The notes under the pieces are model-generated. The model saw only the letters and a list, made by a program, of their open reading frames with translations. It did no database searches and was not told the DNA's origin. From a virus, in IMG/VR virus record IMGVR_UViG_3300021400_000020, positions 32,001 to 96,000 of that record: DNA of 64,000 bases. The stretch is one strand, 5' to 3'. Positions within the stretch are counted from its first letter, which is position 1. The number at the start of each line of letters is the position of its first letter. The translations under genes and the position numbers were made by a program. Positions 3,491-51,694 of this stretch are shown here, in pieces.

Positions 3491-3499
3491 CGAATCATA

Positions 3500-3527
3500 T
3501 TAACCCCATAAACCCCATTACCCCATG
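3500..3527 (+). repeat. AACCCCAT leader repeats running into the ATG at 3525
   Basis: TTAACCCCATAAACCCCATTACCCCATG. Confidence 0.8.
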
Positions 3528-4922: not shown

Positions 4923-4959
4923 TCCCATTCATCAACCCCATCAACCCCATTTTCCCATG
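4923..4959 (+). repeat. AACCCCAT leader repeats running into the ATG at 4957
   Basis: TCCCATTCATCAACCCCATCAACCCCATTTTCCCATG. Confidence 0.8.
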
Positions 4960-5121: not shown

Positions 5122-5125
5122 TCCA

Positions 5126-5191
5126 CCACCGTTCCCGAAAGTTCTGCTTTCGGGTATTGTCCTTCTCAGTACCCGAAAGTTCCGCTTTCGG
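5126..5191 (+). repeat. A + B hairpin pair
   Basis: CCACCGTTCCCGAAAGTTCTGCTTTCGGG, then CCTTCTCAGTACCCGAAAGTTCCGCTTTCGG. Confidence 0.9.
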
Positions 5192-5227
5192 TTCCCCATC
5201 AACCCCATTAACCCCATCAACCCCATG
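5192..5227 (+). repeat. Four CCCCAT units (C4 runs spaced 5 nt apart) running into the ATG at 5225
   Basis: TTCCCCATCAACCCCATTAACCCCATCAACCCCATG. Confidence 0.85.
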
Positions 5228-13718: not shown

Positions 13719-13866
13719 CCATCAAAGAAACAAGGTTTCCACGCTCTCGTGAAAACCTTGAACTTTTGAGTCTCAATTCACGCAAAAAAATTGAAACTCC
13801 ATCTTTAAATCATGGCAAAGATACGACTTTCATCGTTCCCCTCAAAATCTTTCCGTCAATTTCTGC

Positions 13867-13940
13867 ACCACCGTCCACGAAAGTTCCTGCCACCGTTCCC
13901 GAAAGTTCCTGCCACCGTTCCCGAAAGTTCCGCTTTCGGG
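13867..13940 (+). repeat. 22-nt tandem array of A-type 5' half-sites (three units); only the last unit completes the hairpin
   Basis: ACCACCGTCCACGAAAGTTCCT / GCCACCGTTCCCGAAAGTTCCT / GCCACCGTTCCCGAAAGTTCCGCTTTCGGG. Confidence 0.85.
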
Positions 13941-15295: not shown

Positions 15296-16417
15296 TTAAA
15301 ATCGTCTAACACCCTTCACGAAAGGAGCAAAGACACTGTTGCATGGGTTCTTAGGGTCGTAGTCATTGGAAGGAGGACAGTGCTTAGGGCATTGCTGCTG
15401 TCTGTTCAGACGCTTCTGCTCTTCTTCTGGCAACGCATTCCCGTCCTCGTCATACCACAAGCCGTCATCACCGAGGGTGGGAGGTGCTGGCACATAGAGA
15501 GGAGAGGTTTTCACGTAAGGGCGGAAAGAATCCTGATGTGCGACGATACACCTCTTGGCTAAGGCAAGCTGCATGTCTCCACGCTCCACACTGTCCTTGC
15601 GACCCTCGCCCGAAAGGGATTCAGCATAGCGCACCAACGCACGACGTAGGTAATTCTTTGCTTTCTTGCGCCAGATATAATGTTCCACCTGACTTGCTGC
15701 ATCCTCACCATCATTCCCATCCGACCCATTATCCCCATCATGCCACTCATGAACAAAAGCAGAAAACAACTCCTCACCGATGGCTGGTTCCAGATATACG
15801 CTCTGAGCCTCCTGAAGATTCGGGAACATCTCAATGAACTGCTTCCTGCCATCCTTCAGAGTCGTGTAGTTTCTGAGTTCATGGGCTGTCGTAAATAGCA
15901 AGTCAGCCTTATAGTAGAAGAACTCGCTTTCCTTCCATTCTGTCTGATACAACGGTTCTTTAGACTCCGCATCCAACTCTAAAAGGGTCAGCAAATTGTC
16001 CTCGCTTTGCCGCGCTTTACGCCAAGCATCACGCTCGAAGCGGTCCAAGGCTTTCTGCTCTGCCGATTCGTAGTAGTCTGCAGACATCTGATTAAAACCA
16101 CCTCCCTCATTGAAACTCAACGCATACACACCTGCATTGTCTGCCAACGTGTAGTAGAGGGCGATGCGCTGACACTGGCGGAGAATCCTGATATTCAAGT
16201 CTCTGTTATTGAATGTGGCGTTTGTCAAGCCTGTGTCCTGCAAGTTCTCCACAAGACTGTCATACTCGGTGGCGAGCTTATCCAACAAGGCATCACCCAA
16301 GAGGGGCGTGAGGCGGACATTCACTTCATTGTCGATGTCACTAATCAAGCGGTCGAGGTTCGTCCACTTACTCTGAGGATAGATAGCTTCTATCTCTTTG
16401 ATATTACAGAAAAACAT
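15296..16417 (-). CDS. hypothetical virion-module protein (373 aa) with an acidic low-complexity insert (DGDNGSDGNDGED)
   Basis: ATG ORF immediately downstream of the portal-like gene and preceded by the 28-nt GTGAAAAG element. Confidence 0.75.
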   Translation of the reverse strand: MFFCNIKEIEAIYPQSKWTNLDRLISDIDNEVNVRLTPLLGDALLDKLATEYDSLVENLQDTGLTNATFNNRDLNIRILRQCQRIALYYTLADNAGVYALSFNEGGGFNQMSADYYESAEQKALDRFERDAWRKARQSEDNLLTLLELDAESKEPLYQTEWKESEFFYYKADLLFTTAHELRNYTTLKDGRKQFIEMFPNLQEAQSVYLEPAIGEELFSAFVHEWHDGDNGSDGNDGEDAASQVEHYIWRKKAKNYLRRALVRYAESLSGEGRKDSVERGDMQLALAKRCIVAHQDSFRPYVKTSPLYVPAPPTLGDDGLWYDEDGNALPEEEQKRLNRQQQCPKHCPPSNDYDPKNPCNSVFAPFVKGVRRF

Positions 16418-16460: not shown

Positions 16461-18227
16461 TTATTTGCTCTCCGTTGATACAACCCCCGTCTTGCTGTTG
16501 TCCAGCGTCGTGAGGTTCTGCTGTTCTATCACCCATTTCAAGTGCTTGTCACAGTCATTGAAGGTGGAAATCATGTCCAAGAGCCATAGGTAACGACGCT
16601 GACTTGGACTCACCTGCTGCTCCTTCAGCAAATGCAACTCACGCTGGAACGTGCCTCCCTTACCAGAACTACCAGGACGTGAGCCGATCAGTTCGGGATG
16701 AACACCCATTGCAAAGAAGATGATACTGCTCACTTCCTCCAACTCGGCTTTTAAGTCCTTGGCGTTCTGAGGTTGTGGCACATCTACAATCTCAATCGAC
16801 TTCACGAGCGTCTTCTCATCTTGGCTCAGATAGGCATCCAATGCAACGGTCTTACCGTTATTGTCGCGCTTCTTCAGGAATTGGTTGATGTCGTTAATCA
16901 GACCCGTCTTGATAGCATCCTGCTCGTCCTCGTTCGTCGCTCCCATCTGGTCGTAGAGTTTCTGAAGGTAGTTGAGATTGATGTAGATGATTTTTCCCCA
17001 CATCGTAGAGTTGTTCCTCGCCGCTGCCTTGTCGAACATCATTGTATAGGCATAGTTATACACATAGCTCAGGAAGATACTCCACCACATAGGCTGTGGA
17101 TAGTAAGGGCGGAGTATGTTCGCACGTTTCAGAGGGATGCAGAACCATGCCGTGCGCTCATTCACCTTCTGACGTTGTTGACGCGATACCCACGAATTCA
17201 ATTCTTCAATGGCACTGTCGGAATTGATGACAGGGTAGGCGATGACCTCGCCAAATTGCAAGTCGGGAGTGCATTCCTTGCGCCAACGCTCGGCATAGAA
17301 GACATTCTCAATCTTCAAGTCCTTGCTCATCTCCTCGTAACGGGTGCAGACACAAGGCAGAAAACCGAGTTTCACAATCTTAGGATTCCACTTGCCGCTC
17401 TTACCTCGCGACAAGCCAATCGTAGGAAAGGCGATGTTCATGTGGGCATCGTCAGTACAATACTTCTCATAATGCTCACAGAGATTGTTGTTCTCAAGGA
17501 ACTCACGAAGCCATTGACTTGTGCTTTCCCATTTTTCATAGTCTTTGACAAGCTGATCGATTTCCTTGTCAAGGTACTCTTTGAGACGAGTATGCTTGCC
17601 ACCCTTACGCGGACCTTCCTCGCCACCGTTCCCGAAAATTTGGTTTTCGGGTAAAAGGTTACCGTTCCCGAAGGTTCTGCCTTCGGATTCCCCGTTCACC
17701 CCATCATCCTGCGACTCATCATCATCCAAGGCATCTCGTCGTGAAGATAACTCTATAAGTCTATTCAGAATCAGCGTACCAGCAAGAGGGTAGGGGATGC
17801 TCTCTTCCTTGACCGTCCCTCCAGCGTATCGTGCCCATACGTAAGTGGGTTTGGGACCATGCCCTTGCGTGAGGTTGATGATGTATTCCATAGCAGCAGC
17901 AGTGTAGGGGAGGGCTGCCACTAACTGCGCAATCCTGTTCGGCTGGTCGTTGGCACTGCCCCAGGCGATATACTTGCCTTTGACGGTCTTGCTATCCACA
18001 CTGATTGCCTGTATTTGCTTACCGTCGGGAATGAGGTTGCTGCCCGTACCAAGCATCGACTTGTTCGCCCATTCCGCGCAGCCACTCACCACCGAAGGGT
18101 CGTTATTCTTGCTGTTGCCAAACCCTGTCACCGTGATGGGAATATAACCACGTTTCTGCAAGCTCTGAATCTTGCTGAAGGCTTTATCAACGGTTTTTTT
18201 AAACTGATTCTTCTGATTCTTTGCCAT
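16461..18227 (-). CDS. portal-like protein (588 aa)
   Basis: Size and position fit a portal. C-terminal region ...YPQPMWWSIF...AMGVHPELIGSRPGSSGKGGTFQRELHLLKEQQVSPSQRRY... resembles portal stem/tunnel regions as I recall them. Not verified by search. Confidence 0.6.
   Translation of the reverse strand: MAKNQKNQFKKTVDKAFSKIQSLQKRGYIPITVTGFGNSKNNDPSVVSGCAEWANKSMLGTGSNLIPDGKQIQAISVDSKTVKGKYIAWGSANDQPNRIAQLVAALPYTAAAMEYIINLTQGHGPKPTYVWARYAGGTVKEESIPYPLAGTLILNRLIELSSRRDALDDDESQDDGVNGESEGRTFGNGNLLPENQIFGNGGEEGPRKGGKHTRLKEYLDKEIDQLVKDYEKWESTSQWLREFLENNNLCEHYEKYCTDDAHMNIAFPTIGLSRGKSGKWNPKIVKLGFLPCVCTRYEEMSKDLKIENVFYAERWRKECTPDLQFGEVIAYPVINSDSAIEELNSWVSRQQRQKVNERTAWFCIPLKRANILRPYYPQPMWWSIFLSYVYNYAYTMMFDKAAARNNSTMWGKIIYINLNYLQKLYDQMGATNEDEQDAIKTGLINDINQFLKKRDNNGKTVALDAYLSQDEKTLVKSIEIVDVPQPQNAKDLKAELEEVSSIIFFAMGVHPELIGSRPGSSGKGGTFQRELHLLKEQQVSPSQRRYLWLLDMISTFNDCDKHLKWVIEQQNLTTLDNSKTGVVSTESK
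17623..17651 (+). repeat. A-type hairpin inside the portal ORF (stem CCCGAAAA/TTTTCGGG, compensatory change)
   Basis: CCACCGTT CCCGAAAA tttgg TTTTCGGG. Translated in frame as ...NQIFGNGG... Confidence 0.85.
17659..17686 (+). repeat. A-type hairpin inside the portal ORF (stem CCGAAGG/CCTTCGG, compensatory change)
   Basis: TTACCGTTC CCGAAGG ttctg CCTTCGG. Translated in frame as ...EGRTFGNG... Confidence 0.85.
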
Positions 18228-23439: not shown

Positions 23440-23470
23440 TTTGTTGATAAAAATTTATCTGCTATATTTG
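23440..23470 (+). promoter_or_regulatory. Bacteroidota-type promoter (TTTG-N19-TATATTTG) for the early (+) operon
   Basis: TTTG ttgataaaaatttatctgc TATATTTG. Same -7 octamer and spacing as the divergent partner. Confidence 0.55.
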
Positions 23471-23543
23471 CAAGCGAATTTTAAAGAGATAAAATTTTTT
23501 ACAAATCCATTTTCGCACCCTCTGCGAATCTACTTTCCAAAAA

Positions 23544-23611
23544 CCACCGTTCCCGAAAGTTCTGCTTTCGGGTTCAGAAAAAACCACCGTTCCCGAAAGT
23601 TCTGCTTTCGG
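23544..23611 (+). repeat. Two A-type hairpins in tandem (40-nt period)
   Basis: AAACCACCGTTCCCGAAAGTTCTGCTTTCGG occurs twice (23544-23572 and 23584-23611). Confidence 0.9.
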
Positions 23612-23632
23612 TCATCAGAAAGAAAGAAATCT

Positions 23633-25673: not shown

Positions 25674-25706
25674 AACCATTAACCCCATAAACCCCAAAAA
25701 CAAATG
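25674..25706 (+). repeat. AACCCCAT-type leader repeats running into the ATG at 25704
   Basis: AACCATTAACCCCATAAACCCCAAAAACAAATG. Confidence 0.7.
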
Positions 25707-32419: not shown

Positions 32420-32486
32420 ACGAGTTTCACGGATGGCACGAAAATCCTTTCCGTAGGATATAAAAAAAACAAAGCATTGAATTTGA

Positions 32487-32515
32487 TTAACCCCATTAAA
32501 CCCATAAACCCCATG
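32487..32515 (+). repeat. AACCCCAT leader running into the ATG at 32513
   Basis: TTAACCCCATTAAACCCATAAACCCCATG. Confidence 0.75.
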
Positions 32516-39838: not shown

Positions 39839-40387
39839 CTAAAATAATCTATAGTACACGCCTACCCCAACAAACGGCTCGGCGTTTTTGTTCTTCATTC
39901 CAAGACCAACACCACCCATCACACCAACACCCCAACGCGGATATTTCTTGATAGTAATTGTCTGTGTGTTGGTAATGATCGTCGTTCGCATCCTCAGTTC
40001 AATGGAGTCCAGCTTTGCATGATAGCCACTGACCCAAGCCCTATATAGACTATCCTCATAGATTGTCTGCTCAATCGGTATCTCCACCTGAACACTGTCC
40101 ATCATCTTATTGGCGTCAATAAGATGGTCGTCTTTCTCAGTAAGTGTCGGTTCTGCCGACACCTTCAGATACCCCACTTCGGTCCTTACCTGCATACTGT
40201 CCGTCGGTACGGGCTCGCGCACCCTCACGGTGTCATGCACCGTCACCGTGTCACTCACCGTCACCGTGTCCCTCGTCTCCTTGAACACAACACTCGGCTC
40301 ATAACAACTGCGCACACAAATCACAGCCAGCACAATCACAGCCAGCACCCCAATCGCACAGAGCTGCATCTTTGCTATATCCTTCAT
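39839..40387 (-). CDS. membrane-anchored lysis-cassette protein (182 aa), spanin-like candidate
   Basis: N-terminal transmembrane segment LCAIGVLAVIVLAVICV. Gly-rich beta-like C-terminus ending YYRLF. Lies directly downstream of the endolysin. Confidence 0.65.
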   Translation of the reverse strand: MKDIAKMQLCAIGVLAVIVLAVICVRSCYEPSVVFKETRDTVTVSDTVTVHDTVRVREPVPTDSMQVRTEVGYLKVSAEPTLTEKDDHLIDANKMMDSVQVEIPIEQTIYEDSLYRAWVSGYHAKLDSIELRMRTTIITNTQTITIKKYPRWGVGVMGGVGLGMKNKNAEPFVGVGVYYRLF

Positions 40388-40403
40388 AACATCTTGCTTT
40401 TAG

Positions 40404-40453
40404 TTACCGTTCCCGAAAGTTCTGCTTTCGGGTAAAAGAAAGTTCCGTTTTCG
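40404..40453 (+). repeat. A-type hairpin plus half-site (TAAAAGAAAGTTCCGTTTTCG)
   Basis: TTACCGTTCCCGAAAGTTCTGCTTTCGG, in (+) polarity although the flanking genes are on (-). Confidence 0.85.
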
Positions 40454-41419: not shown

Positions 41420-41689
41420 TTAAAGTACCATCAGAATGAATGCCTGGACAATAGCACCAATTCCGCTCCATTTCACATAGTTCTTCAAATCCTCTCGTTC
41501 CAATACACCGCTTTTCTTTTCCTGAGCCAACTCACGATATACGGCAAGCATACAAGCAAGTCCGCTAATCAAGAGACCCAAGACAAAAAAGACAATAGCA
41601 CCCACCTTGTTCCTGTCAACTGCCTTCAAACTATCAAGCCATTTCATATTACATTGTTTTTTAGTGTTACCAAATATTACCCCACTCAT
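41420..41689 (-). CDS. small two-TM membrane protein (start at 41689 or 41647)
   Basis: VGAIVFFVLGLLISGLACMLAV and GIGAIVQAFILMVL. Confidence 0.6.
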   Translation of the reverse strand: MSGVIFGNTKKQCNMKWLDSLKAVDRNKVGAIVFFVLGLLISGLACMLAVYRELAQEKKSGVLEREDLKNYVKWSGIGAIVQAFILMVL

Positions 41690-41828
41690 CCTCTTTCTCC
41701 GTATGTGAAGGCTCTGCCTTTACCTGTGGAGTTGCACAACCCTCGTGATAGGAATAGAACTGCGCATAGTCTGCATCTAATTCAGTTTCACGAGTTATCA
41801 TTGCTGGTTTTAAATATTCCTTTTTCAT
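41667..41828 (-). CDS. possible small protein (53 aa) coupled by ATGA overlap to the upstream gene
   Basis: MKKEYLKPAMITRETELD... taken from the internal ATG of track ORF 41667..42044. Confidence 0.35.
   Translation of the reverse strand: MKKEYLKPAMITRETELDADYAQFYSYHEGCATPQVKAEPSHTEKEDEWGNIW
41694..41723 (+). repeat. B-like element (TTTCTCCGTAT + GTGAAGGC/GCCTTTAC)
   Basis: Read directly from the sequence. Confidence 0.6.
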
Positions 41829-42082
41829 TGCTCTGTCAATAATTGAATAATTCCTTGTCCTACTACGGAGCACAAGAAAGTTAATATCATTGTCCACCAA
41901 CTGTGGTCTTTCTTGTACTCGACACGAAAGTAAACCACGTAAAAGATACTCATAATCACTCCCGAATGTGCGGCATTGTACCAGTTGCACGAACTCAATC
42001 CTACCACCAAACCCGCCAACATCCATGCCCAGCGAGTTTTCCACTTGAAAATTCTGCCGATAAATTTAATAATTTCTTTCAT
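41825..42082 (-). CDS. small membrane protein (85 aa)
   Basis: Hydrophobic helices WAWMLAGLVVGL and WWTMILTFLCSVV. Confidence 0.6.
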   Translation of the reverse strand: MKEIIKFIGRIFKWKTRWAWMLAGLVVGLSSCNWYNAAHSGVIMSIFYVVYFRVEYKKDHSWWTMILTFLCSVVGQGIIQLLTEQ

Positions 42083-43249: not shown

Positions 43250-44743
43250 TTATAAATTAAGTTTGAATACATTCTTCATGTGGATACTCTCATAGTGACC
43301 CTGCACATAGAAATACGTCCAAAAGATTTCACCCATCAACGCAATCATCTCCTTCCGATAATGATAGGTTCGCTTCCTCCGACAAAATCCAAGATAGGAA
43401 TTCACGACCTGCTCAATACGCTTGCAGTCCAGATACGTCAAATCCTTCTTTGCCTCCATCAGACGACGGAACCCGATAGCACGCTCCTTGAATCGAGCCA
43501 GCGTCCTGTTCGAAAGATACAGTCTGCAAGGCTTGATATAAGTACCGACAAACAACACGCCATGACTCACTGGCTGCAAGTATCTCTCTTCGTGCATCTC
43601 CAGCTGAAGATGGGTCTTGAGGAACTTTTCCATCTTCACAATCGCACCCTTCAGGAAATCGAGGTCGTCACACTGACAGACGAAATCATCCACGAACCGC
43701 TCGTAGGAGAACGAATGGTGACGGAAAAGGAAAAGCACATACATGTCGAAATACGACATCAAGAAGTTGGCAAACAACTGAGTCGTGAGATTACCGATAG
43801 GCTCACCCTTGGTTTTCTCACAACCAAACAAGGACTTGTTAGGCGATAACCGCTCCCAAAGATGCACGGGCGAATTCAGCACACAATTCTCTTCTGGACG
43901 ATGCAACACAACTGTCTTCGTGGTATGGATAAGCACGTCCCAGAACATCTCTGGCATACGCTGCATACCAAGACGAACAAGGACATCGGGAGAAACCGAC
44001 TCGAAGCCCTTGCGCTCCATGCGCTTCCTCCATCGGTTGATGAACCTCTCCATGAAGTACCACAAAACCAACTTGTCTATACTCATGAAGAAGCCTACAA
44101 TATCACCCTTGAATAGCCATGCCTTACGATGATAATGCCCAGTGATACGCTCCATGCCTTCAGCACAATGTGCAACACATTTGTCTGTACCGAAACCCTT
44201 ACGGCAATTGAAACTGACATTGCCCTGCGACACAAAACGCTCCTCAAACAACGGCTCTAACCGTAAGCAAATCCAATGGTGAACAATCCTGTCACGAAAG
44301 CTGGCGGCAAACACCTCCCTCGGTTTGGGATAGAGAACCATAAAGCAGGTGGATGTGCCTGGTTGATATGTCTTGCTCCACAACTCGTATGCCAAGGCGG
44401 GAATATCCTCTATGGCTTTAGACATGTACTCGATGGCTTGCTTGGAACGGAACTTGCCGTGCATACAGTCTTTGTACGCCGCCCAAACAGAGTCAAGAAA
44501 GGCTTGCGGCACGGAGCTATAATCGTGGAACGCTGTGACCGCCCTGACAACATACGAATTATACTTGTTGTTGTTGTTCACATTACCATTCTGGAAATTC
44601 ACGTTGTACGAATTCGTGGTATTGTTCTCGGACGCGGACCAGAAGTTACTGTCTTTTTGCGATTCTGCATCTTCGTAGCTAACACATCTTGAGAATGTGT
44701 TAGCGAATCGCCCGTTCAACGGATTATAGGATGCTCTAACCAT
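43250..44743 (-). CDS. DGR reverse transcriptase; the true start is uncertain because the 5' ~215 nt of this ORF contains the TR
   Basis: WAAYKDCMHGKFRSKQAIEY (N-terminal DGR-RT-like), FKGDIVGFFMSID (motif A), GEPIGNLTTQLFANFLMSYFD (the IGNLTSQ signature typical of DGR RTs) and YERFVDDFV (YxDD). Confidence 0.9.
   Translation of the reverse strand: MVRASYNPLNGRFANTFSRCVSYEDAESQKDSNFWSASENNTTNSYNVNFQNGNVNNNNKYNSYVVRAVTAFHDYSSVPQAFLDSVWAAYKDCMHGKFRSKQAIEYMSKAIEDIPALAYELWSKTYQPGTSTCFMVLYPKPREVFAASFRDRIVHHWICLRLEPLFEERFVSQGNVSFNCRKGFGTDKCVAHCAEGMERITGHYHRKAWLFKGDIVGFFMSIDKLVLWYFMERFINRWRKRMERKGFESVSPDVLVRLGMQRMPEMFWDVLIHTTKTVVLHRPEENCVLNSPVHLWERLSPNKSLFGCEKTKGEPIGNLTTQLFANFLMSYFDMYVLFLFRHHSFSYERFVDDFVCQCDDLDFLKGAIVKMEKFLKTHLQLEMHEERYLQPVSHGVLFVGTYIKPCRLYLSNRTLARFKERAIGFRRLMEAKKDLTYLDCKRIEQVVNSYLGFCRRKRTYHYRKEMIALMGEIFWTYFYVQGHYESIHMKNVFKLNL
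44528..44652 (-). repeat. DGR template repeat (TR), 125 nt
   Basis: 114 of 125 nt identical to the VR. Asn (AAC)-rich in the coding frame: ENNTTNSYNVNFQNGNVNNNNKYNSYVV. Confidence 0.9.
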
Positions 44744-44749
44744 AATTGC

Positions 44750-45178
44750 TTATGAATTACCCTGACCACTGGTATAATCTCGCAACGCTATTGCTTGCGC
44801 GACGATGCCCCGTGTCAGCTGCCTTATCTTGTTCTCTGTGTCCTTACTGATATGATTCATCTTGTGCAAAATCTTGATGTCGTCCTGAACATCTTCAACG
44901 AAGATATGGACCATATCAAGATACTCTATCCTCATGGCGGAGTCACGAGTCGCATGTGCCAATCCTACACATTTCTTCGCCTCGCTCACAGTCAGCAAGA
45001 TACTGTCTATGTAGCGAGTGAACTTCCTCGGAACTCGTTCATAAAGACATACCACGAAATACTTCAAGTTCGCAATGTCACGATAAATCGGCATCTGACG
45101 AAGTGTCCTGTGCTGACGCTTCTTCTGCTCACTGTCTTGTATCGTTGCTTGTGGAATGACTACACCATTTGTGCTCAT
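44750..45178 (-). CDS. avd: DGR accessory variability determinant (Avd-like four-helix-bundle protein)
   Basis: 142 aa and basic, lying between the VR and TR. ...IYRDIANLKYFVVCLYERVPRKFTRY...SEAKKCVGLA... fits the Avd / four-helix-bundle family pattern. Confidence 0.7.
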   Translation of the reverse strand: MSTNGVVIPQATIQDSEQKKRQHRTLRQMPIYRDIANLKYFVVCLYERVPRKFTRYIDSILLTVSEAKKCVGLAHATRDSAMRIEYLDMVHIFVEDVQDDIKILHKMNHISKDTENKIRQLTRGIVAQAIALRDYTSGQGNS

Positions 45179-45247
45179 ATCATTGTTGTTAAATCATTTG
45201 TGTATCCTTGGGCGACGGCTTGAATGCCGTCGCTATAAGTAAAAAGT

Positions 45248-45263
45248 GACACGCTAAAGCGTG
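45248..45263 (-). promoter_or_regulatory. GC-rich hairpin (6-bp stem, 4-nt loop) 4 nt 3' of the VR, overlapping the target stop codon
   Basis: Coding-strand ACACGC TTTA GCGTGT. Its position matches the hairpin/cruciform that supports homing in characterised DGRs. Confidence 0.55.
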
Positions 45264-48200
45264 TAGGTGAACGCTGTGACCGCCCTGACAACATACGAAT
45301 TATACTTGAGGTTGCTGCCCACACTACCATTCTGGAAACCCACGTTGTACGAATACGCGGTATTGTACTCGGACGCGGACCAGAAGTTACTGTTACCCCA
45401 CCAAGTAAATATTGAAGAGGTCTCTCCTGCATCCTCCAATCTTTTCAGAATGTTCGCCATCAGTGGATAATCAACATCTTGAACTCCTTCTTGGGCTTCA
45501 TTCGCGTATTGCGCACTAATAGTACCACCACTTACCTTATTACGGGAAGCATGGTACATACCGTAAATCTTGTTGACCATACCACAGGCAGGAAGCATCC
45601 AATTTTCTCGCGCATAGCGAGCGTCCAATACTTCACCTTCTTTAACAGCTGGTTCATACAACTTGCATGCGTATGCAGCAGGATAGAACAACTGATAGAA
45701 TCTTGTCGAGTTTGTTGTACCTAACGCGTTTTGCAAATAGCTCAAAGCCACCATCATATCTGCAAGCTCTGTTCTATTATTAGGGCGAGAGTTTGACGAA
45801 GATCGTTCTTTTGCCCACCGCATCAACCCGTATTGCGATGGTGTTAGCAAACTCCATGACGAAGTGTCGAATGTCCCAGTAGTTGATACTGCCTTGCACA
45901 TATACAAAGCACTACTATAGCGAACGACATTTCCACTCGCGTAAGTATTTTCAGTATTATAAGCAGGTGGCGTTTCTGGTAAATCATAATTTCCCCAGAC
46001 ATAACGAATCCAACCTGAAAGGATTTCGTTTGCTCGATCAACCATAGCCGCGGACTTTACTGCAGTAGAGAAGTCACCCGAACCACTACCAGTCGTTGCA
46101 AAAGAATGAAGAGTTACATTTCTACTATGTTCTCGGATTGCAGCTTGAATATCAGAGTTAAAGCCATTAGCATCAGTTGATGGATAAATACCCCACGGTA
46201 ATGAAGCAGTGTTGTTGATAGTACCATCAGAACTTTTTAGGTTGGCATTCTCTTTCGCAACAACATCGATAGTTCGTGTTGAACCAGCACCACCACTACC
46301 AGAAACCCGAACAACAAAGCCAACAACCGTTTTATCGTATCGGTACTCATCATCAAACGTACCGTCCGCAAAGGCGAAGTCGCCTCTTTGTGGCTTGCGG
46401 TTGAAGAAACCAATATTCCAATAAGCACTAATCGTAGTGTCATTCAGCAGCTCAGCAGTCACCTTCAGACGATAGCGGGTCGTGTCTCCAGAAGCAGCCA
46501 AACGAATGACATTGGCAATACCTGCAACATCGTCAACAAACTGCATATAGGAAGAGGCATCAAGGTCTTCCACCTCATTTCCACCGCTATCTGTCTTGAC
46601 AAATCGCCACTGCAACACAGGCTTTCCATCCACAAACTTCAGATTGTTTCCTGCATCGGTAGCAACACCAAACTGAGTCTGACCTAAAGCAGTAAAATAC
46701 TTCTGACCTGTGATAGACAAACGCTCAATCAGCACAGGCACATAATCGATATACAAATCATTCGACTCGCTCCGAATATTGCCATACTTGCCAAACAGAT
46801 ACGTCAAGTCAGACAACGAGAGATTGGCAGCCGTGTGCATCGTAATCCTACCCGTCAAAGTACAAGACTCTAACGACGTAATCCACATCAGGAAGTCACG
46901 ACGTACCGACTCCCAGAGAATATTGGTCAAGGTCAGCACCTCCAACGGAGCATTCTCTTCATGGCATTGCTCTACCAACGCACGTCCCAGACTACCTACA
47001 CCGCGCAAAATCAAAGTTCTCAACTCATACGTGTGTATGACTCTGAGCGTCGTGAGGTTAGGCAAGTTGTTCAGTGTCAGATTAACCAAGCGACTGCCCA
47101 GCTCCACACTCGTCATCAGCAAACTGGATGGTAACTGAATGCCGACGATACCACCCGAAACATTGCCGTTGCCGTCATCAATGCCGTCGCAGCCCATCGT
47201 ATTGACACTACGCAAGCGAATGCAGTTCGACAAGTTCAACGTGCCACCAATCCCTGCACTACCCTCCAAGTCAAGATGCTCTATCAACGGACAGTTAAGC
47301 ACAATCTCAGACGGCTTGAAAGCAGGGTTCGACGGACTCGACGGATTGGAAACGAACTCAGTCAAATGCTGAGCGGTTAGCGTGAATCGGGAAGCGGAAC
47401 TGATATGAAGGTCGCCCACATTACCAAAGGAACGATAGTAATTGGCAGCGTAAAGGGCAATAGCGGTATCGACACCATCAACAGGAGAACCACCCGTCAT
47501 GTCAAAGACAACAGGAACACCTGGCTTGCATCTCTGACGCATGGAGATATTCGTCTGTCCAATACGACCGCATGGATAGATATACTGATGCGGAACCAAA
47601 CCATTGAACACAATAAGATCTCCACCGTTCAAACCAAATACGTTCTCAAGGTCTGAAAAACCGACATTTCCAGACGACAGGCTGAAATCACCCCATTCGG
47701 CATAACTCGCCAGCAATACCAACCTGCGCTTCATGTACTGCACCTCCGCTTCTAATTGGTCACCCATCGACTGCGTGATAGGGTCAACACCTCGCTCGGA
47801 AATGAAATGGACGGAAGCAGGGTATTCATAGCGAATACGGGCAGCCTCGTTATAGGCAACGGCAGGAATGTATTGCTGAATCTTGAAGAAGTATTTCCAC
47901 ATGCAACCCCACGGCGTAGTCTTCTGATTGTTGCTCAATGGCAAATCATCCGACACACTAACAAGCCCGCTCATGGTGGTAAAGATACGCTGGAACATAC
48001 TGCGCAACTCGCCATTGCCCTCATACAACTCTTCTGTCAAATTGAAAAGCACATTGGCATTACCACGATAGAGACTTTCAGTCGAGCCTTCAGCGCAAGG
48101 ATGCAGACGGTCGATATAGTACGGCTTGGTCTGGAAACCGCTATTATCAGTTTTGAAAATAGTATCTTGGTCGTCCTGATGCAACTCCCACTTCCACGTC

Positions 48201-51200
48201 CACGTACTCTTGTCAGCAGAAGCATCACCATACGGAACAAGGCAATAGTAAGTATTCTTCGAACAGTTATCAGAACCGCAAATCATCCAGTTCGTGAAGC
48301 AATAATGGAACTTCAGACTATCTACATTGATGATATTGCCAATCTTACTACGAGCATCTTCAACAACAGCTGCAATAAAACCTGCATTCATCGCCTCGAA
48401 ATTACCAGGATGACTGACATAGGCATTGCGATAGATACTACCAACAGCGGTCAAGTCACATTCCTCCACAACTTCATTGGTTTCATCCCAACCATAATCA
48501 ACCCACTTGCCTTCAAAGAAGTCATAGCGCATCAACTTGTAAGAACCTGCGCCTTCTGTCCACCAATAAAGGTAGTTGACATCATTGGCAGCTGCACTCG
48601 CCTCGAACTGCGTCTTCGTACCAGAAAAATATTTGATACGAGGGTTGTGCTTATAAAGGAAATTGACAAACTGCTTGATGTGGTTCAGAATCGTAGAAGA
48701 AGGTACTTCTACCTCATTACCATCAATCGTGATTGTCTGAGCGACGAACTTGTCAAGGTCAAGACTGGTATAGCCATTATAGATAAAGCCAGCAGCTTCT
48801 CCATCTTCTATCTCGTAACTGATTCTGTCACTCTGCCAAGGCACACGGAAATCGGTCAAAGGAAGGTCGTTATCGGCTCCTTCCAACATCACGAAATTAG
48901 GATGCTTCTTCTTGTTGAATCCCCAAGTACCGTCGTCCATCTTGCCAGGACCGAAAGTACAAGGTCCTTGATAAACAGCGGTGTCACCTTCTTGCAAGAA
49001 ATACAAGAACACATTCTGACACTTCGCCACACGTGCGCCAGCGGTCTGCACCTGCATCACATTCCTTCCGACGATGGCTTGATGCAAATCGTTGTAGAGG
49101 TTACAAGCACCCATCAGGTGACTCTGCATCGAGGATGCATAGTTGATTTTTGCGACGAGCTTTTGAGCGTATGGCACACCGTTCATCAACTTATACTGAG
49201 GACCACGATACATACCATTGCCATCAACCCAGCCGTCAGGGACAAAGGCATAGCCATTCCTTGCAGTAGATGGCGTGAAGTCACTGTAGTCTGGATGAAT
49301 CTTCGTAATTTCCACCCAGATACCATGCGGACAAAGCTCAGCGGTCTGCTCCAGCGTCACAGTCTCTGCGTCAAGCCCGTTCTTCGAAAGTTCCTTATCG
49401 TAAGCCTTCGCCACGTCCTTCAACTTGCTTTGCAGATTCCAATAGTAGTAAGTCTTGGCTGTGGAACCCTGACCTGTCTGCTCAACCGAAGCGGTTTCCC
49501 TACAAAGACTTCCGCTATAGTCTAACAACTCGTTACCATTGTCGTCGTATTGATGGATTTCCCACCAACCCGTTTTGGTAGCAGTGTCACCCTTTCGTAT
49601 CTGACCACCAGCACAGTGCCATATCAGACAGTTCTTCTTCCTCTCCTGACACTTGGTAAGACTAATCAAGCCTGTATTGCCAAGAAGGTCGTTCTCATCT
49701 CGCACACTGACCTTCTGAGCCGCCGTAGGCATCGTACTTCGATAGTTCTGCAAGATGTCGGCTGAATCAAGGGCTTGGTTCTTATACACACGCAAAGCAA
49801 AGATGTCAATATCAGCACCAGCCTGACCTATCACAATGGATGAACCACGACTATACCATGTGCCGGCAGTGTCCTTGTCAAAAATGAACTCACGATTGAT
49901 ACAACCATTGATAAAAACACGACACAAGGCAAGCGTACTGGCATTATTGTCGGTCGATGCTCGCAAAGCGGAAACGATATTGATAACGACATGAGTGCGC
50001 TCACCTTCCTGCCAAGAGAAATTCTGCTCCAGCTCGGTACGGTTCGATGAAGTCCAGACACTACCCTCCAATGGGCGCATCTTCAAACCGATAAAGCCGT
50101 CACCGTATCCTTCGCACGCCTGAAAAACAGGGTCGTCCTCATTAGTGACATTCCGAACCTTGAAATCCAACTCCAACGTGACATTGGCAGCGGCATTGTT
50201 GGCGAAAGGACTCAACCAGTCATAGTTAATAGTCAGTAACTGACCAGCAAGCACACGAAGGACACGCTGATTATCTTCATCCTGAACCCAAGCGTCGTTG
50301 ATAGCTCCGAAATTTGACCATGTGGATGGAACAAGGACATTGCCAACGGCATTCACAATGGAAAGTGGCGTACCCTCGGCATTACTTCGAGTCGAAGGAT
50401 TCAAATAGAAGTCTGCACCATTCGTAGGAGCGAAGTTCTCCTTGTTGTCAACAGTTATCACTTCACCGCTGGCGAAAGTATAAGTCGTTCCTCGGTCAAT
50501 GATATAGGCATAGAAATAGGCATAAAGGGTTAAGTCGGTGCTCTCAATACCCACACTACCATTCAAGTGATAAGGAGTACCAGGAGTTGCCAAGACTTCC
50601 ATATTCAGATAGTCCTGAGTCTGCGAATTGTTGCGGATGGCGAAACTGACAGCGATGGAATCCCTACCAGGCGCATAGACAGCGTAGGAACAAATCTCGG
50701 TCTGCACGTAGTTCTCCGTCGTCTTGATGAGATTCTGGATGAGCAAGCGAGGAGTGTCCGTCACATTACTGGTCACAACCATCAACTGATTGATGACATG
50801 ATCCGTAGAGTTCACGTCTTCTTGCGTACCGTCGGAATAGGTCAGCCATGCCTCAATCGTGATGATACCACCCGACAAGAAACCATAATATTGGGAAGCA
50901 TCAGCAACGGTGTCTGTGTCCTTCCAAGTGGAAAGATAATTGGTATATTCATTCGCACCAATGGAAAAGACATGCTCGTACTCACGGGTTCCGCCTGTAA
51001 TCCTGACATGTAACTTTCTCGCTACACTTCCCTTGAGGTGATAATTGAGAGGAATCACAGTCGGATTCGTCAGAGGCGCATTGTAGTCACCTGCAAATTC
51101 CAAACCCACCTCAGTATAGGTGACGGATGAGAAGGTGACATAACCCTGTGTGTTCATGGTTTGCATGTTGCCAGTCATATCCTCATAGTCAAAAGCAGCA

Positions 51201-51694
51201 CGCAACTGCACGACAACAGTTTCATCTTGCTTCAGATACGGTCCGATATTAACAGGATAATAGGAACTTGGATGCTCGTCATACTCCAACGAAGGAACAT
51301 CTAAAACAGCCTTGTCCTCACCATTGACCCTGACCGTCAAACGTCCATTGGCACCGTAGTTACGAGGAACGACTCCATCCATGTAGGCACCAGTGAACCT
51401 GACTCCAATCCAACAGTCCTTGGAGCTGACAACAATCGGGAGAGTAGGGTCTTGCTCCACCATCAAGTAAGCCTTGTATTCAGCACCTGACAAGTCAATG
51501 GTCAGACGAACCGTTCCTTCCGGATCTGGAGTCTGTGGCGTATTTCCATTCAAGGAAATGCCCATGACACTGTTCTGATTCTGCCTAACAGCACGGACCA
51601 ACCTAACAAACTCTTGAGCTGTTAGCTTACCCTCTGGGTCGTCAGGATGATTGTCGATTTTCGACAACAAGTCTGAAATATCTTCTTTCGCCAT
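45254..51694 (-). CDS. giant DGR target protein (2146 aa): putative tail fiber / receptor-binding protein with LRR-like region and C-terminal C-type-lectin/DUF1566-like variable domain
   Basis: Contains the VR at its 3' end. C-terminus ...WMLPACGMV...FWSASEYNTAYSYNVGFQNGSVGSNLKYNSYVVRAVTAF fits the DUF1566/CLec DGR target pattern. LRR-like LNLSNC..LTLNNLPNLTTLRV..LTLTNI. Confidence 0.9.
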   Translation of the reverse strand: MAKEDISDLLSKIDNHPDDPEGKLTAQEFVRLVRAVRQNQNSVMGISLNGNTPQTPDPEGTVRLTIDLSGAEYKAYLMVEQDPTLPIVVSSKDCWIGVRFTGAYMDGVVPRNYGANGRLTVRVNGEDKAVLDVPSLEYDEHPSSYYPVNIGPYLKQDETVVVQLRAAFDYEDMTGNMQTMNTQGYVTFSSVTYTEVGLEFAGDYNAPLTNPTVIPLNYHLKGSVARKLHVRITGGTREYEHVFSIGANEYTNYLSTWKDTDTVADASQYYGFLSGGIITIEAWLTYSDGTQEDVNSTDHVINQLMVVTSNVTDTPRLLIQNLIKTTENYVQTEICSYAVYAPGRDSIAVSFAIRNNSQTQDYLNMEVLATPGTPYHLNGSVGIESTDLTLYAYFYAYIIDRGTTYTFASGEVITVDNKENFAPTNGADFYLNPSTRSNAEGTPLSIVNAVGNVLVPSTWSNFGAINDAWVQDEDNQRVLRVLAGQLLTINYDWLSPFANNAAANVTLELDFKVRNVTNEDDPVFQACEGYGDGFIGLKMRPLEGSVWTSSNRTELEQNFSWQEGERTHVVINIVSALRASTDNNASTLALCRVFINGCINREFIFDKDTAGTWYSRGSSIVIGQAGADIDIFALRVYKNQALDSADILQNYRSTMPTAAQKVSVRDENDLLGNTGLISLTKCQERKKNCLIWHCAGGQIRKGDTATKTGWWEIHQYDDNGNELLDYSGSLCRETASVEQTGQGSTAKTYYYWNLQSKLKDVAKAYDKELSKNGLDAETVTLEQTAELCPHGIWVEITKIHPDYSDFTPSTARNGYAFVPDGWVDGNGMYRGPQYKLMNGVPYAQKLVAKINYASSMQSHLMGACNLYNDLHQAIVGRNVMQVQTAGARVAKCQNVFLYFLQEGDTAVYQGPCTFGPGKMDDGTWGFNKKKHPNFVMLEGADNDLPLTDFRVPWQSDRISYEIEDGEAAGFIYNGYTSLDLDKFVAQTITIDGNEVEVPSSTILNHIKQFVNFLYKHNPRIKYFSGTKTQFEASAAANDVNYLYWWTEGAGSYKLMRYDFFEGKWVDYGWDETNEVVEECDLTAVGSIYRNAYVSHPGNFEAMNAGFIAAVVEDARSKIGNIINVDSLKFHYCFTNWMICGSDNCSKNTYYCLVPYGDASADKSTWTWKWELHQDDQDTIFKTDNSGFQTKPYYIDRLHPCAEGSTESLYRGNANVLFNLTEELYEGNGELRSMFQRIFTTMSGLVSVSDDLPLSNNQKTTPWGCMWKYFFKIQQYIPAVAYNEAARIRYEYPASVHFISERGVDPITQSMGDQLEAEVQYMKRRLVLLASYAEWGDFSLSSGNVGFSDLENVFGLNGGDLIVFNGLVPHQYIYPCGRIGQTNISMRQRCKPGVPVVFDMTGGSPVDGVDTAIALYAANYYRSFGNVGDLHISSASRFTLTAQHLTEFVSNPSSPSNPAFKPSEIVLNCPLIEHLDLEGSAGIGGTLNLSNCIRLRSVNTMGCDGIDDGNGNVSGGIVGIQLPSSLLMTSVELGSRLVNLTLNNLPNLTTLRVIHTYELRTLILRGVGSLGRALVEQCHEENAPLEVLTLTNILWESVRRDFLMWITSLESCTLTGRITMHTAANLSLSDLTYLFGKYGNIRSESNDLYIDYVPVLIERLSITGQKYFTALGQTQFGVATDAGNNLKFVDGKPVLQWRFVKTDSGGNEVEDLDASSYMQFVDDVAGIANVIRLAASGDTTRYRLKVTAELLNDTTISAYWNIGFFNRKPQRGDFAFADGTFDDEYRYDKTVVGFVVRVSGSGGAGSTRTIDVVAKENANLKSSDGTINNTASLPWGIYPSTDANGFNSDIQAAIREHSRNVTLHSFATTGSGSGDFSTAVKSAAMVDRANEILSGWIRYVWGNYDLPETPPAYNTENTYASGNVVRYSSALYMCKAVSTTGTFDTSSWSLLTPSQYGLMRWAKERSSSNSRPNNRTELADMMVALSYLQNALGTTNSTRFYQLFYPAAYACKLYEPAVKEGEVLDARYARENWMLPACGMVNKIYGMYHASRNKVSGGTISAQYANEAQEGVQDVDYPLMANILKRLEDAGETSSIFTWWGNSNFWSASEYNTAYSYNVGFQNGSVGSNLKYNSYVVRAVTAFTYTL
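45268..45392 (-). repeat. DGR variable repeat (VR), 125 nt
   Basis: Eleven differences from the TR, all where the TR coding strand has A. Eight codons are changed (N>Y, T>A, N>Y, N>G, N>S, N>G, N>S, N>L). Confidence 0.9.

Follow-up and report, generated by a model that had tools for sequence, protein, structure and literature searches.

A hairpin repeat cassette translated in frame within the portal gene of a phage

The locus considered here raises a simple question: how does a gene of a phage structural module come to hold two hairpins of a repeat family in frame, and are these hairpins tolerated there as part of a protein loop, or do they act as a regulatory structure? The window analyzed is a stretch of 64,000 nucleotides from the genome of a gut phage (IMG/VR record IMGVR_UViG_3300021400_000020, positions 32,001 to 96,000). 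An earlier note, made from the letters of this DNA, had placed two family hairpins in frame within the minus-strand open reading frame (ORF) 16461..18227, and both the sequence and its translation bear this out. The ORF reads ...GESEGRTFGNGNLLPENQIFGNGGEEG... and stays open across both hairpin units. The features at the locus are the following:

16461..18227, minus strand: portal protein gene, a single ORF of 588 amino acids that contains the repeat cassette
17619..17654, plus strand: hairpin unit 1, with tag CCACCGTT at 17623-17630, stem 17631-17638 paired with 17644-17651, and loop TTTGG at 17639-17643
17655..17693, plus strand: hairpin unit 2, with tag GTTACCGTT at 17658-17666, stem 17668-17674 paired with 17680-17686, and loop TTCTG at 17675-17679
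17687..17722, plus strand: nonamer part of the cassette, TCCCCGTTC, ACCCCATCA and TCC..CATCA, its extent on this side being approximate

On the plus strand, the first hairpin reads CCACCGTT-CCCGAAAA-TTTGG-TTTTCGGG, with the tag starting at 17623 and the stem and loop spanning 17631-17651. TAAAAGGTTA lies between the two hairpins, and CCGTT-CCCGAAGG-TTCTG-CCTTCGG(A) then occupies 17662-17687. The unit starts are 36 nt apart, that is 12 codons, and the gap between the units is 8-10 nt, depending on the choice of unit start. In minus-strand translation, unit 1 gives LLPENQIFGNGG (residues ~191-203), unit 2 gives GESEGRTFGNGN (residues ~179-190), and the nonamers give DDESQDDGVNG (residues ~169-179). 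Minimum-free-energy folds predict both hairpins, and their covariance model scores, 25.8 bits for unit 1 and 38.9 bits for unit 2, both fall inside the range of the family.

The gene had been called portal-like, and structure prediction together with fold search identifies its product as a phage portal protein. The AlphaFold2 model (mean pLDDT 79.5, pTM 0.73) shows the wing, stem, clip and crown architecture of portals. Its top 50 Foldseek matches in the PDB are all phage portals (probability 0.98-1.00), and its BFVD matches are annotated as PBSX- or HK97-family portals. The assignment comes from these structural comparisons alone, since sequence-based searches of the protein against Pfam and PHROGs, and with a profile against PDB sequences, were without a match. 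The surroundings are those of a head, neck and tail module, with a DUF6712 protein, small proteins and a 2425-aa tape-measure protein encoded downstream on the same strand. Megablast against GenBank phages finds no match to a known phage genome, and tblastn finds a single weak match (27% identity).

The two hairpins belong to a family that is abundant in this genome. When up to one mismatch is allowed, 16 sites match the motif CCGTTCCCGAA, and every one of them is on the plus strand. When perfect 7-bp stems enclosing 5-nt loops are sought without bias, 30 are found, compared with ~4 in shuffles; 26 of the 30 form one family, all in plus orientation. A covariance model run with filters off returns 34 plus-strand matches in the window. 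In their alignment, 88% of the stem cells are paired and 53 double-sided changes are counted, against 12.1 +/- 2.7 in shuffles, none of 500 shuffles reaching the observed number. Each unit is made up of a single-stranded tag (CCACCGTY or TCTCCGTA), a 7-8 bp stem and a 5-nt loop, YTYNG, and a cassette contains two units followed by about three CCCCAT nonamers. Within the tag, CGT hardly varies (90% or more for G10 and for T11), but the fourth position can be T, A or C; about one quarter of the copies have CGTC proper. In the loop, T22 is invariant and G25 nearly so (90% or more). The stem generally has 7 bp, with foot pairs that are mostly C-G and an eighth pair in only 10 of the 34 copies. Orientation is uniform, for the 34 copies of the window as for all copies over 82 kb of the 97-kb contig, and arrays are head-to-tail only. 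At the gathering score, Rfam 15 has no match anywhere in the window, and no tRNAs were found. The peptide signature that the earlier note had recognized (ESRTFGNGG) is indeed present, in the form ES(R/G)TFG(N/D)GG, in short minus-frame translations of 11 intergenic copies.

The family also extends beyond this genome, to other Bacteroidales phages, several gut phages being among its carriers, and to Bacteroidales chromosomes, and there too the tag and the loop are conserved while the stems covary. At five chromosomal loci in Bacteroidales MAGs, the element is intergenic and comes after housekeeping genes. In all 10 loci examined (10/10), it is carried by the C-rich strand, whatever the direction of the genes.

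How much of the portal gene derives from the repeat? A repeat-derived segment of ~64 nt had been proposed. The origin holds, the extent does not: alignment to the intergenic module shows that a whole cassette of ~100 nt was captured. Positions ~17619-17722 match two hairpin units plus the CCCCAT nonamers and encode roughly residues 169-203. The nonamers at 17687..17722 are the same NCCCCATNN repeat that comes after the hairpins upstream of plus-strand genes, and in relatives this part reads TCCCCATTC ACCCCATCA TCCCCATCA. Two intergenic copies serve as references:

5122..5227, plus strand: intergenic reference cassette, two hairpin units and then four CCCCAT nonamers that continue into the ATG of the following plus-strand gene; over its full length, the portal insert matches this cassette best
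40400..40438, plus strand: intergenic hairpin unit that shares both the 36-nt unit and its flanks with the portal units, GTTACCGTTCCCGAAAGTTCTGCTTTCGGGTAAAAG

In its strain L073 version, the portal insert aligns with 5126-5219 over 93 nt at 78% identity (E = 9e-16), and the nonamer tail of the insert alone aligns with 5192-5219 (E = 5e-4). The flanks of unit 2, GTTACCGTT and GGGTAAAAG, each have one other site in the window, and both of these are at the intergenic copy 40403-40438. No donor copy with the loop TTTGG was found. The portal cassette shares the plus orientation of all other copies and hence is antisense to the portal mRNA. Within the gene, the lengths of the cassette units are all multiples of three (36, 36, 9, 9, 9), and, on a reading of the consensus, all six frames of the family units are free of stop codons. 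Intragenic periods are 36 and 51 nt; those of intergenic arrays are mostly 37-38 nt, and only 2 of 17 intergenic spacings are divisible by three.

The place of the insert in the protein is informative. In the AlphaFold2 model, residues 181-208 have pLDDT values below 50 and lie between helices 146-174 and 211-246. Across 106 homologues, the conserved residues E159 and E222 are separated by 19 to 88 aa (median 53), compared with 62 aa in the query. As modelled, the insertion point is a length-variable disordered linker at the tip of a two-helix portal arm. This agrees with one of the two options given in the earlier note, a tolerated loop insertion, as the model and the homologue lengths both describe a disordered, indel-rich loop. 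FGNG or GNGG is found in the linker of none of 105 homologues, and family hairpins are found within 10 kb on either side at none of 54 related IMG/VR portal loci, which supports the proposal that the segment is repeat-derived and not ancestral. We also considered whether the linkers of homologues might be decayed repeat copies. This was rejected, given these 54 loci and the contig of homologue P0017 (L007), which is devoid of the hairpin family and whose EGRTIHF uses different codons. No portal relative between 49% and 96% identity was found in the databases; hence, neither the linker as it was before the insertion nor the insertion event can be seen directly.

At the portal insert, differences are found even between strains of 96-100% identity, and these differences bear on the claim that the hairpins are maintained inside the coding sequence. 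This claim had been drawn from paired stem substitutions, which are real: in unit 1 the innermost, loop-adjoining pair has changed from G-C to A-T, and in unit 2 the adjacent pair has changed from A-T to G-C. Moreover, the portal units of the window keep every family-invariant position and perfect 7-bp stems, with 3-4 core positions off consensus. Since the paired changes in unit 1 are both non-synonymous (S to N, T to I), coding constraint does not explain them. Maintenance by selection within the gene is nevertheless not supported by the strains. Strain L072 lacks exactly one 36-nt unit. It keeps unit 2 only, fused to the tag of unit 1, and the remaining stem is degraded, with one G.T pair and one G.A mismatch. 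In strains L071 and L073, unit 1 is of the consensus type, CCCAAAAG-TTCTG-CTTTCGGG, translated as PESRTFGNGG. Their hairpin 1 carries 6 differences within 19 nt, when ~0.35 are expected per 19 nt from the whole gene (33/1767), and its loop and stem have changed together, as a patch. On the plus strand, unit 1 has an A.C mismatch in 3 of 4 relatives, and the nonamer part shows a 6-nt indel among strains. Two strain substitutions fall inside the stems, at 17634 and 17685; in the mRNA sense, each of them leaves a G.U pair, which would fit an RNA hairpin that is kept. Single, uncompensated changes predominate among close relatives, in numbers too few for a test of compensation. In view of the unit loss, the degraded hairpin and the patch-wise change of hairpin 1, the compensatory changes are more readily accounted for by turnover of the repeats than by selection on the structure. 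Thus, compensatory stem changes in captured copies need not imply selection for structure at the site where they are found.

We therefore regard as probable a tolerated in-frame capture of a REP-like intergenic cassette in the portal loop, a case of selfish DNA within a gene comparable to rickettsial palindromic elements (RPEs) and to intragenic REPs. A copy of the phage's intergenic repeat cassette would have been captured inside the portal gene, either by recombination or template switching with an intergenic copy or by single-strand-specific insertion as for REPs. The cassette would then simply be translated, adding ~35 residues rich in Gly, Asp, Asn and Glu. The gene would survive the insert because the cassette has no stop in six frames, because its lengths are multiples of three and because the linker was already length-variable and disordered. 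Afterwards, the insert would evolve like a repeat and not like portal sequence, with unit loss by direct-repeat recombination, patch-wise replacement of hairpins and small slippage indels. It would be neutral for the portal, and a separate function of the hairpins inside the gene would not have to be assumed. The strain snapshots (unit loss, patch replacement, stem decay) suggest more generally that repeat cassettes can create and remodel disordered protein loops.

An alternative that we judge unlikely is that the portal hairpins are working copies of a strand-specific cis element, acting as single-stranded DNA in replication or packaging, or as RNA. They would be kept because they are needed along the genome, and the loop would merely accommodate them (dual use). 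Such an element would account for the conserved tag and loop and the covarying stems across the family, other phages and bacteria, as well as for an orientation that never changes over 82 kb and tracks strand composition at the 10 loci. The perfect stems with compensated pairs in the window, and the pairing kept as G.U at 17634 and 17685, also fit. However, the single, degraded unit of L072 and the A.C mismatch of unit 1 argue against it. Copies are absent from 5.7-13.6 kb, from 28.8-38.1 kb and beyond 41.7 kb, which leaves no regular spacing that would demand a copy at 17.6 kb, and other copies lie just ~650 nt from the portal units, at 18.3 kb. The RNA folding energy of the portal region is unremarkable (z = -0.46, not significant); the DNA fold of the region gives z = -2.99. 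Finally, a scan of 12-30 kb for the terminator pattern, a G+C-rich hairpin followed by a T run, retains only two family members. Neither is a portal unit. After the portal units come GTAAAAGG and ATTCCCCG, and the intrinsic terminator reading, which the scan does not support, was rejected for these units.

It is more improbable still that the insert is kept for an effect on the protein. It could provide a flexible Gly/Asn/acidic loop that replaces or partly mimics an ancestral linker motif, or repeat-driven variability of an exposed loop, for instance for escape from host sensors of portal proteins. The hypervariability of the linker across the family and the non-synonymous patches by which strains differ in the loop go in this direction. 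So does a T[IV]x[FWYM]xxA motif found in the linker of 43 of 106 homologues, two of which read E[SG]RTIHF and resemble the repeat-encoded E[SG]RTFG. Yet the E[SG]RT likeness is limited to 2 of 105 homologues, and P0017, for which the DNA was read, has the Arg codon CGC versus AGA on a contig without the hairpin family. Furthermore, the same repeats are found in unrelated ORFs, which argues against a portal-specific role. Indeed, at least four other minus-strand ORFs of the genome contain in-frame repeat units, among them the following:

40131..40169, plus strand: in-frame family member of the TTTCTCAGTA tag type, inside the minus-strand ORF 39839..40387, translated as KVSAEPTLTEKDD
41692..41730, plus strand: in-frame family member near the 3' end of the putative minus-strand ORF 41667..42044, translated as VKAEPSHTEKEDE
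15708..15748, plus strand: in-frame nonamer repeats in the neighboring minus-strand gene 15296..16417 (DUF6712), translated as HDGDNGSDGNDGED and matching the tail of the portal cassette

Just outside the window, a 287-aa protein contains a tandem array of five 17-aa units, and a hairpin unit encodes each of them; a relative has four. L001 was considered as a different phage sharing only the repeats, by horizontal spread, and this was rejected because its gene order matches that of the same genome just beyond the window. For annotation, these cases call for caution, since what looks like a stretch of "protein" can be a regulatory or selfish cassette translated in antisense.

Artefact or coincidence is scarcely credible, whether as a chimeric assembly, as a pair of genes divided at the repeats (both raised by the earlier note itself) or as a chance resemblance. 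Repeats can in principle cause misassembly, but nothing else was found in favor. Three independent assemblies agree on every base of the gene, and its 90%-identity cluster holds 14 sequences from many samples. Its homologues (n = 241) are all continuous ORFs giving a single polypeptide, one fold is predicted for the whole protein, and the 16 sites of the family motif compare with 0.81 expected.

Beyond the preferred reading of a tolerated capture, a broader proposal is possible, and we put it forward tentatively. The portal insert may be one trace of a hairpin element, not described so far, that Bacteroidales share with their phages and that is polar with respect to the replication strand, with an invariant tag GCCACCGTT, a freely covarying stem and a TTYYG loop. 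This element might be recognized as single-stranded DNA, and its spread or the conversion of its copies might be confined to a single replication strand. In this way, elements of the host type would colonize phage genomes, with new disordered segments in phage structural proteins as a by-product (portal, neck protein, 287-aa protein with 4-5 tandem units). Single-strand, transposition-like recognition would explain both the hairpin-plus-tag architecture and an orientation tied to strand composition. The C-rich-strand bias at the 10 loci points to an unrecognized strand-specific DNA process in an important gut clade. The GC skew of this phage, for its part, suggests that the genome is replicated in one direction.

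Several known systems can be compared with this family. The promoter-early stem-loops (PeSLs) of T4-type phages are mobile regulatory cassettes that are intergenic, flank small genes and promote recombination; they follow gene orientation and include a promoter. The phage family resembles them in its repeated intergenic stem-loop cassettes. It differs by its uniform orientation and by a cassette that is translated in a structural gene; to our knowledge, translated inserts in structural genes have not been reported for PeSLs. In Rickettsia, palindromic elements, which Ogata and colleagues are said to have described in 2000, reportedly lie in frame in protein-coding genes, where they are tolerated and thought to be surface-exposed. 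A palindromic repeat in frame in a coding gene is what is found in the portal. In contrast, RPE-1 is much longer (~100-150 bp), its host is an intracellular bacterium, and no uniform strand orientation or link to phages is known for these elements.

In the earlier note, repeats that colonize an essential structural gene without breaking its frame had been described as rare; as a kind of event this is not upheld, and the present genome has at least four more ORFs of this sort. Indeed, intragenic REPs of the GTAG- and CGTC-tagged types, often in dimers or groups, encode 20-30 aa in frame, which are thought to belong to flexible loops or linkers (Di Nocera et al., 2013, PMC3733652), and REPs in frame are likewise known inside tnpA-REP genes (Quentin et al., 2018, PMC6006769). 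In-frame REPs located in peripheral loops are also on record (PMC3733652; PMC6006769). RPE-4 and RPE-6 are of the CGTC type (PMC3733652). In IS200/IS605 and REP/TnpA-REP systems, a hairpin and an adjacent guide are recognized in single-stranded DNA and one replication strand is targeted (PMC6006769). The resemblance to the phage family is mechanistic only. No member of the Y1/HUH transposase Pfam family was found among the 59 ORFs of the window, nor among the called genes of L062 and L064, and junctions of cleavage or insertion were not identified either.

With REPs, the phage family shares an unpaired tag at the foot of the hairpin, a stem of ~8 bp, a 5-nt loop and a mostly intergenic location near gene ends. 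It is close to CGTC-type REPs in several respects: no dedicated transposase is known for that type, the 5-nt loop fits the 4-5 nt loop of REPs, and the family occurs in bacterial chromosomes (the five Bacteroidales MAG loci), with some units intragenic in this phage. However, the tag, CCACCGTY or its variant, is neither GTAG nor strictly CGTC, and the 5' GT[AG]G tetranucleotide of GTAG REPs is absent from the foot of the hairpin. The stem feet are G/C, whereas CGTC REPs have A/T at the first and second positions of an 8-9 bp stem. CCA stands 5' of the tag, on the same side, whereas the CCA tail of REPs is at the untagged end. Phage copies are head-to-tail in one orientation, without the inverted pairs of REPINs and BIMEs, whereas head-to-head dimers predominate among REPs. 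Finally, the carrier here is a phage, and a whole cassette with its nonamers was captured. We found no report in the literature of such an insert in a phage portal; the in-frame capture of palindromic repeats, known from bacteria, is met here in an essential structural gene of a phage.

The minus-strand ORF 16461..18227 (588 aa) remains open across two hairpin units and reads ...GESEGRTFGNGNLLPENQIFGNGGEEG... over them. The sequence at 17623-17687 and this translation confirm the earlier note on both counts.

From 17623, plus strand: hairpin unit 1, with tag, stem and loop, CCACCGTT-CCCGAAAA-TTTGG-TTTTCGGG
36 nt after unit 1 (the pair spans 17623-17687), plus strand: hairpin unit 2, (GTTA)CCGTT-CCCGAAGG-TTCTG-CCTTCGG

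Both units belong to a family that is abundant in the window. The 11-mer CCGTTCCCGAA, with at most one mismatch, has 16 sites, on the plus strand only (0.81 expected). A scan presupposing only a perfect 7-bp stem and a 5-nt loop gave 30 hairpins versus about 4 after shuffling; 26 of the 30 form one family, all in plus orientation. Its members have a common single-stranded 5' tag (CCACCGTY or TTTCTCCGTA) and a YTYNG loop, and their stems vary (CCGAAAG, CTGAAAG, CTCTCGG, GCAGCGG, GTGTCGG, and others). With filters off, a covariance model picked up 34 copies in the window, all of them on the plus strand, and no minus-strand copy independent of these; it scores the portal units at 25.8 and 38.9 bits, inside the family range. 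When the 34 are aligned, pairing holds in 88% of the stem cells and double-sided stem changes amount to 53 cells, against 12.1 +/- 2.7 after shuffling (0 of 500 shuffles as high), all slid controls being far below the observed value. As had been claimed, each portal unit has a pair that is compensated with respect to the consensus, and the peptide signature ES(R/G)TFG(N/D)GG recurs where 11 intergenic copies are translated in short minus frames.

Beyond unit 2, the plus strand runs on as ATTCCCCGTTCACCCCATCATCC..., which is the NCCCCATNN nonamer repeat; ahead of many plus-strand genes, this repeat comes after hairpins. Close strains have TCCCCATTC ACCCCATCA TCCCCATCA in this part. In the close strain L073, the insert can be aligned over its entire length to the intergenic module 5126-5219 (78% identity over 93 nt, E = 9e-16), the insert tail by itself matches 5192-5219 (E = 5e-4), and the flanks GGGTAAAAG and GTTACCGTT have two sites each in the window, in the portal gene and in the intergenic copy 40403-40438. 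Because of this alignment, the tail match and the shared flanks, the repeat-derived span covers about 17619-17722 (residues ~169-203), that is, three nonamers, each giving x-x-Gly, and two 36-nt hairpin units.

Many plus-strand genes also have 2-4 copies of the nonamer AACCCCATN immediately before their ATG, with the array running into it. There are 39 CCCCAT sites on the plus strand vs. 4 on the minus strand, and the array complement reads as GGGG-N5 repeats, a G-quadruplex-type motif.

3499-3527, 4931-4959, 5194-5227, 25678-25700, 32484-32515 and others, plus strand: AACCCCATN nonamer arrays

Boxes of the Bacteroides promoter type can be seen, e.g., TTTG...TAtaTTTG at 23441-23471. At 23441-23633, this promoter is followed by two hairpin units within the C5 methylase 5' leader; since they lie within this leader, after the promoter, these hairpins cannot be efficient terminators.

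The portal gene is base-for-base identical on a 97-kb ENA scaffold and in two Logan assemblies from other runs, and many samples contributed to the 14 members of its 90%-identity cluster, which rules out an assembly artefact. The alternative of two genes split at the repeats fails, as 241 of 241 homologues are single polypeptides covering both halves. The ORF has no match in Pfam, in PHROGs or in a profile search of PDB sequences. A Foldseek search of the PDB with its AlphaFold2 model (built on 106 sequences; pLDDT 79.5, pTM 0.73) gave phage portal proteins at each of the first 50 ranks, and its BFVD matches carry PBSX- or HK97-type portal annotation; the product is thus identified, through predicted structure and fold search, as a portal. 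The surrounding genome is that of a tailed phage of ~97 kb, with genes for a 2425-aa tape-measure protein, a protease/capsid, a C5 methylase, a DarB-like protein and a diversity-generating-retroelement-type reverse transcriptase. The tape-measure gene has two ~150-nt internal repeat pairs within 10967-12298 (10967/11900 and 11167/12151; 75-78% identity). Parts of a diversity-generating retroelement occupy 43250-45393, one repeat copy (45269-45393) being at the 3' end of a 2146-aa gene (45254..51694).

43250..44743, minus strand: reverse transcriptase gene
44528-44652 and 45269-45393: 125-nt repeat pair, 91% identity

Outside the window, the source contig (L062 1-3079; L064 6869-8268) encodes PcfJ-like, ArdC-like, ParA-like and HU-like proteins, a set reminiscent of plasmid-like maintenance (phage-plasmid).

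The proposal of a tolerated loop insertion is well supported. In the model, pLDDT falls below 50 at residues 181-196 and 198-208, between the long helices 146-174 and 211-246. This linker is the sole indel-rich stretch of the family alignment: from conserved E159 to E222, homologues have 19-88 residues (median 53) and the query 62. Minus the insert, the linker would have ~27-31 aa, inside the range of short-linker homologues. By secondary-structure order, the helical arm with the insert would belong to the N-terminal (wing) part, and precede a putative clip-like conserved IEIVDVPQP segment and a Gly-rich tunnel-loop segment.

FGNG or GNGG is found in the linkers of 0 of 105 homologues, and family hairpins near 0 of 54 IMG/VR portal loci (31-45% identity; 10 kb either side), in agreement with the view that the segment is repeat-derived, not ancestral portal sequence. 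Beyond the 96-100% cluster, the next most similar portal has just 49% identity, so that the insertion event cannot be bracketed. Two homologues, P0009 and P0017 (contig L007, 7552-9351), have E[SG]RTIHF in their linkers where this portal has the repeat-encoded E[SG]RTFG, and a T[IV]x[FWYM]xxA motif occurs in the linker of 43 of 106 homologues. The P0017 Arg codon is CGC vs. AGA in the repeat-encoded peptide, and no family hairpins were found on the P0017 contig. The likeness may be a coincidence, or microhomology that seeded capture. In that other phage, IS607/IS605-type TnpB (OrfB) genes (L007 1874-3843 and 9401-10525) flank the portal homologue.

Selective maintenance of the hairpins inside the gene, also proposed earlier, is unsupported by a comparison covering all 14 members of the cluster together with the four DNA sequences of L006, L071, L072 and L073. 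In one strain, a deletion between the two CCGTTCCCGAA direct repeats has removed exactly 36 nt, and the single hairpin left there contains a G.T pair and a G.A mismatch. Hairpin 1 of the window, AAAA-TTTGG-TTTT (PENQIFGNGG), corresponds in two strains to a consensus-type version, AAAG-TTCTG-CTTT (PESRTFGNGG). This patch differs at 6 of its 19 nt, whereas 33 of 1767 nt differ over the entire gene (~0.35 expected per 19 nt), and the "compensated" pair changes jointly with two loop bases; it looks like a single conversion-like event, not two selected point mutations. On the plus strand, an A.C mismatch is present at 17634 in three of four relatives and at 17685 in two; both changes are synonymous and are G.U in the mRNA sense, a pattern that keeps an RNA-level reading alive. 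The nonamer part has a 6-nt indel among strains, and in intergenic copies of close relatives stem changes are likewise mostly single and uncompensated. The strain changes in the portal insert are repeat turnover and do not demonstrate selection for structure there. Elsewhere (13859-13940), a 22-nt half-unit GCCACCGTYCMCGAAAGTTCCT, with the tag and 5' stem arm and without the 3' arm, occurs three times before a complete hairpin, suggesting slippage or template switching within arrays.

By our own reading, the consensus unit is stop-free in all six frames. In genes, the unit period is 36 nt (portal) or 51 nt (a 287-aa protein); that of intergenic arrays is mostly 37-38 nt, only 2 of 17 spacings being multiples of three. 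ORFs bear only frame-neutral copies, as expected from selection on captured copies. The other in-frame copies are as follows.

ORF 39839..40387, minus strand: in-frame unit, peptide KVSAEPTLTEKDD
ORF 41667..42044, minus strand: in-frame unit, peptide VKAEPSHTEKEDE
DUF6712 gene adjoining the portal, minus strand: in-frame nonamers, peptide HDGDNGSDGNDGED
L064 1843-2090, beyond the right window end, minus strand in window terms: 287-aa protein with five C-terminal tandem 17-aa units, DDDGSGRTAAY(R/G)ETDEV

In the 287-aa protein, one 51-nt hairpin unit encodes each 17-aa repeat, and the relative L001 (6197-6395) has four repeats vs. five. All genes with in-frame units are on the minus strand, at sites too few for statistical significance.

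Over 81.7 kb of the source contig, all hairpin copies have one orientation regardless of flanking gene direction. The exact repeat pattern occurs at five chromosomal loci of Bacteroidales MAGs (Prevotella, Candidatus Aphodosoma, Bacteroidaceae), as tandem arrays with varying stems, next to housekeeping genes, namely those for a TonB-dependent receptor, DsbD, EPSP synthase, UbiE, an AIR synthase-related protein and rhamnogalacturonan lyase. A looser pattern is found on more IMG/VR viral contigs (13, 8 and 2 copies), in a single orientation per contig, with private stem sequences and a common GCCACCGTT tag and TTYYG loop. Across this superfamily (the window and L066-L070, L075, L079, L082-L084, L086, L090 and L091), the tag is invariant and the stems covary freely. 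The tag-to-hairpin sense is on the C-rich strand in 10 of 10 loci, whatever the gene direction. GC skew is negative almost throughout the window, in plus-strand genes (-0.046; -0.256 at third codon positions) and minus-strand genes (-0.129; -0.088), which suggests a genome-wide strand asymmetry, e.g., unidirectional replication. Thus, orientation tracks strand composition, not transcription, and would suggest a process tied to replication or single-stranded DNA. Such a process has been described for IS200/IS605 and proposed for REPs (PMC6006769). No nuclease gene for the hairpin element was found among the window ORFs.

The element matches no Rfam family, and does not match a simple terminator pattern. 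It resembles REPs in its unpaired tag and short hairpin, its mainly intergenic location and its in-frame intragenic dimers, above all the CGTC-tagged REPs, which include rickettsial RPE-4 and RPE-6 and have no known transposase (PMC3733652). However, it lacks a GTAG or strict CGTC tag, A/T foot pairs, a CCA tail at the far end and head-to-head dimers. Because several REP-defining features are thus missing, it is REP-like and is not filed as a member. In-frame REPs in peripheral loops have been reported within tnpA-REP genes (PMC6006769). We consider it fairly likely that the portal insert is a tolerated in-frame capture of the phage's own repeat cassette. The rarity claimed for it does not hold in kind: it is a phage example of a phenomenon already known in bacteria (PMC3733652; PMC6006769), but unusual in that a whole cassette was captured and is translated antisense, from a family that is strictly strand-polar and common to the phage and its host clade.
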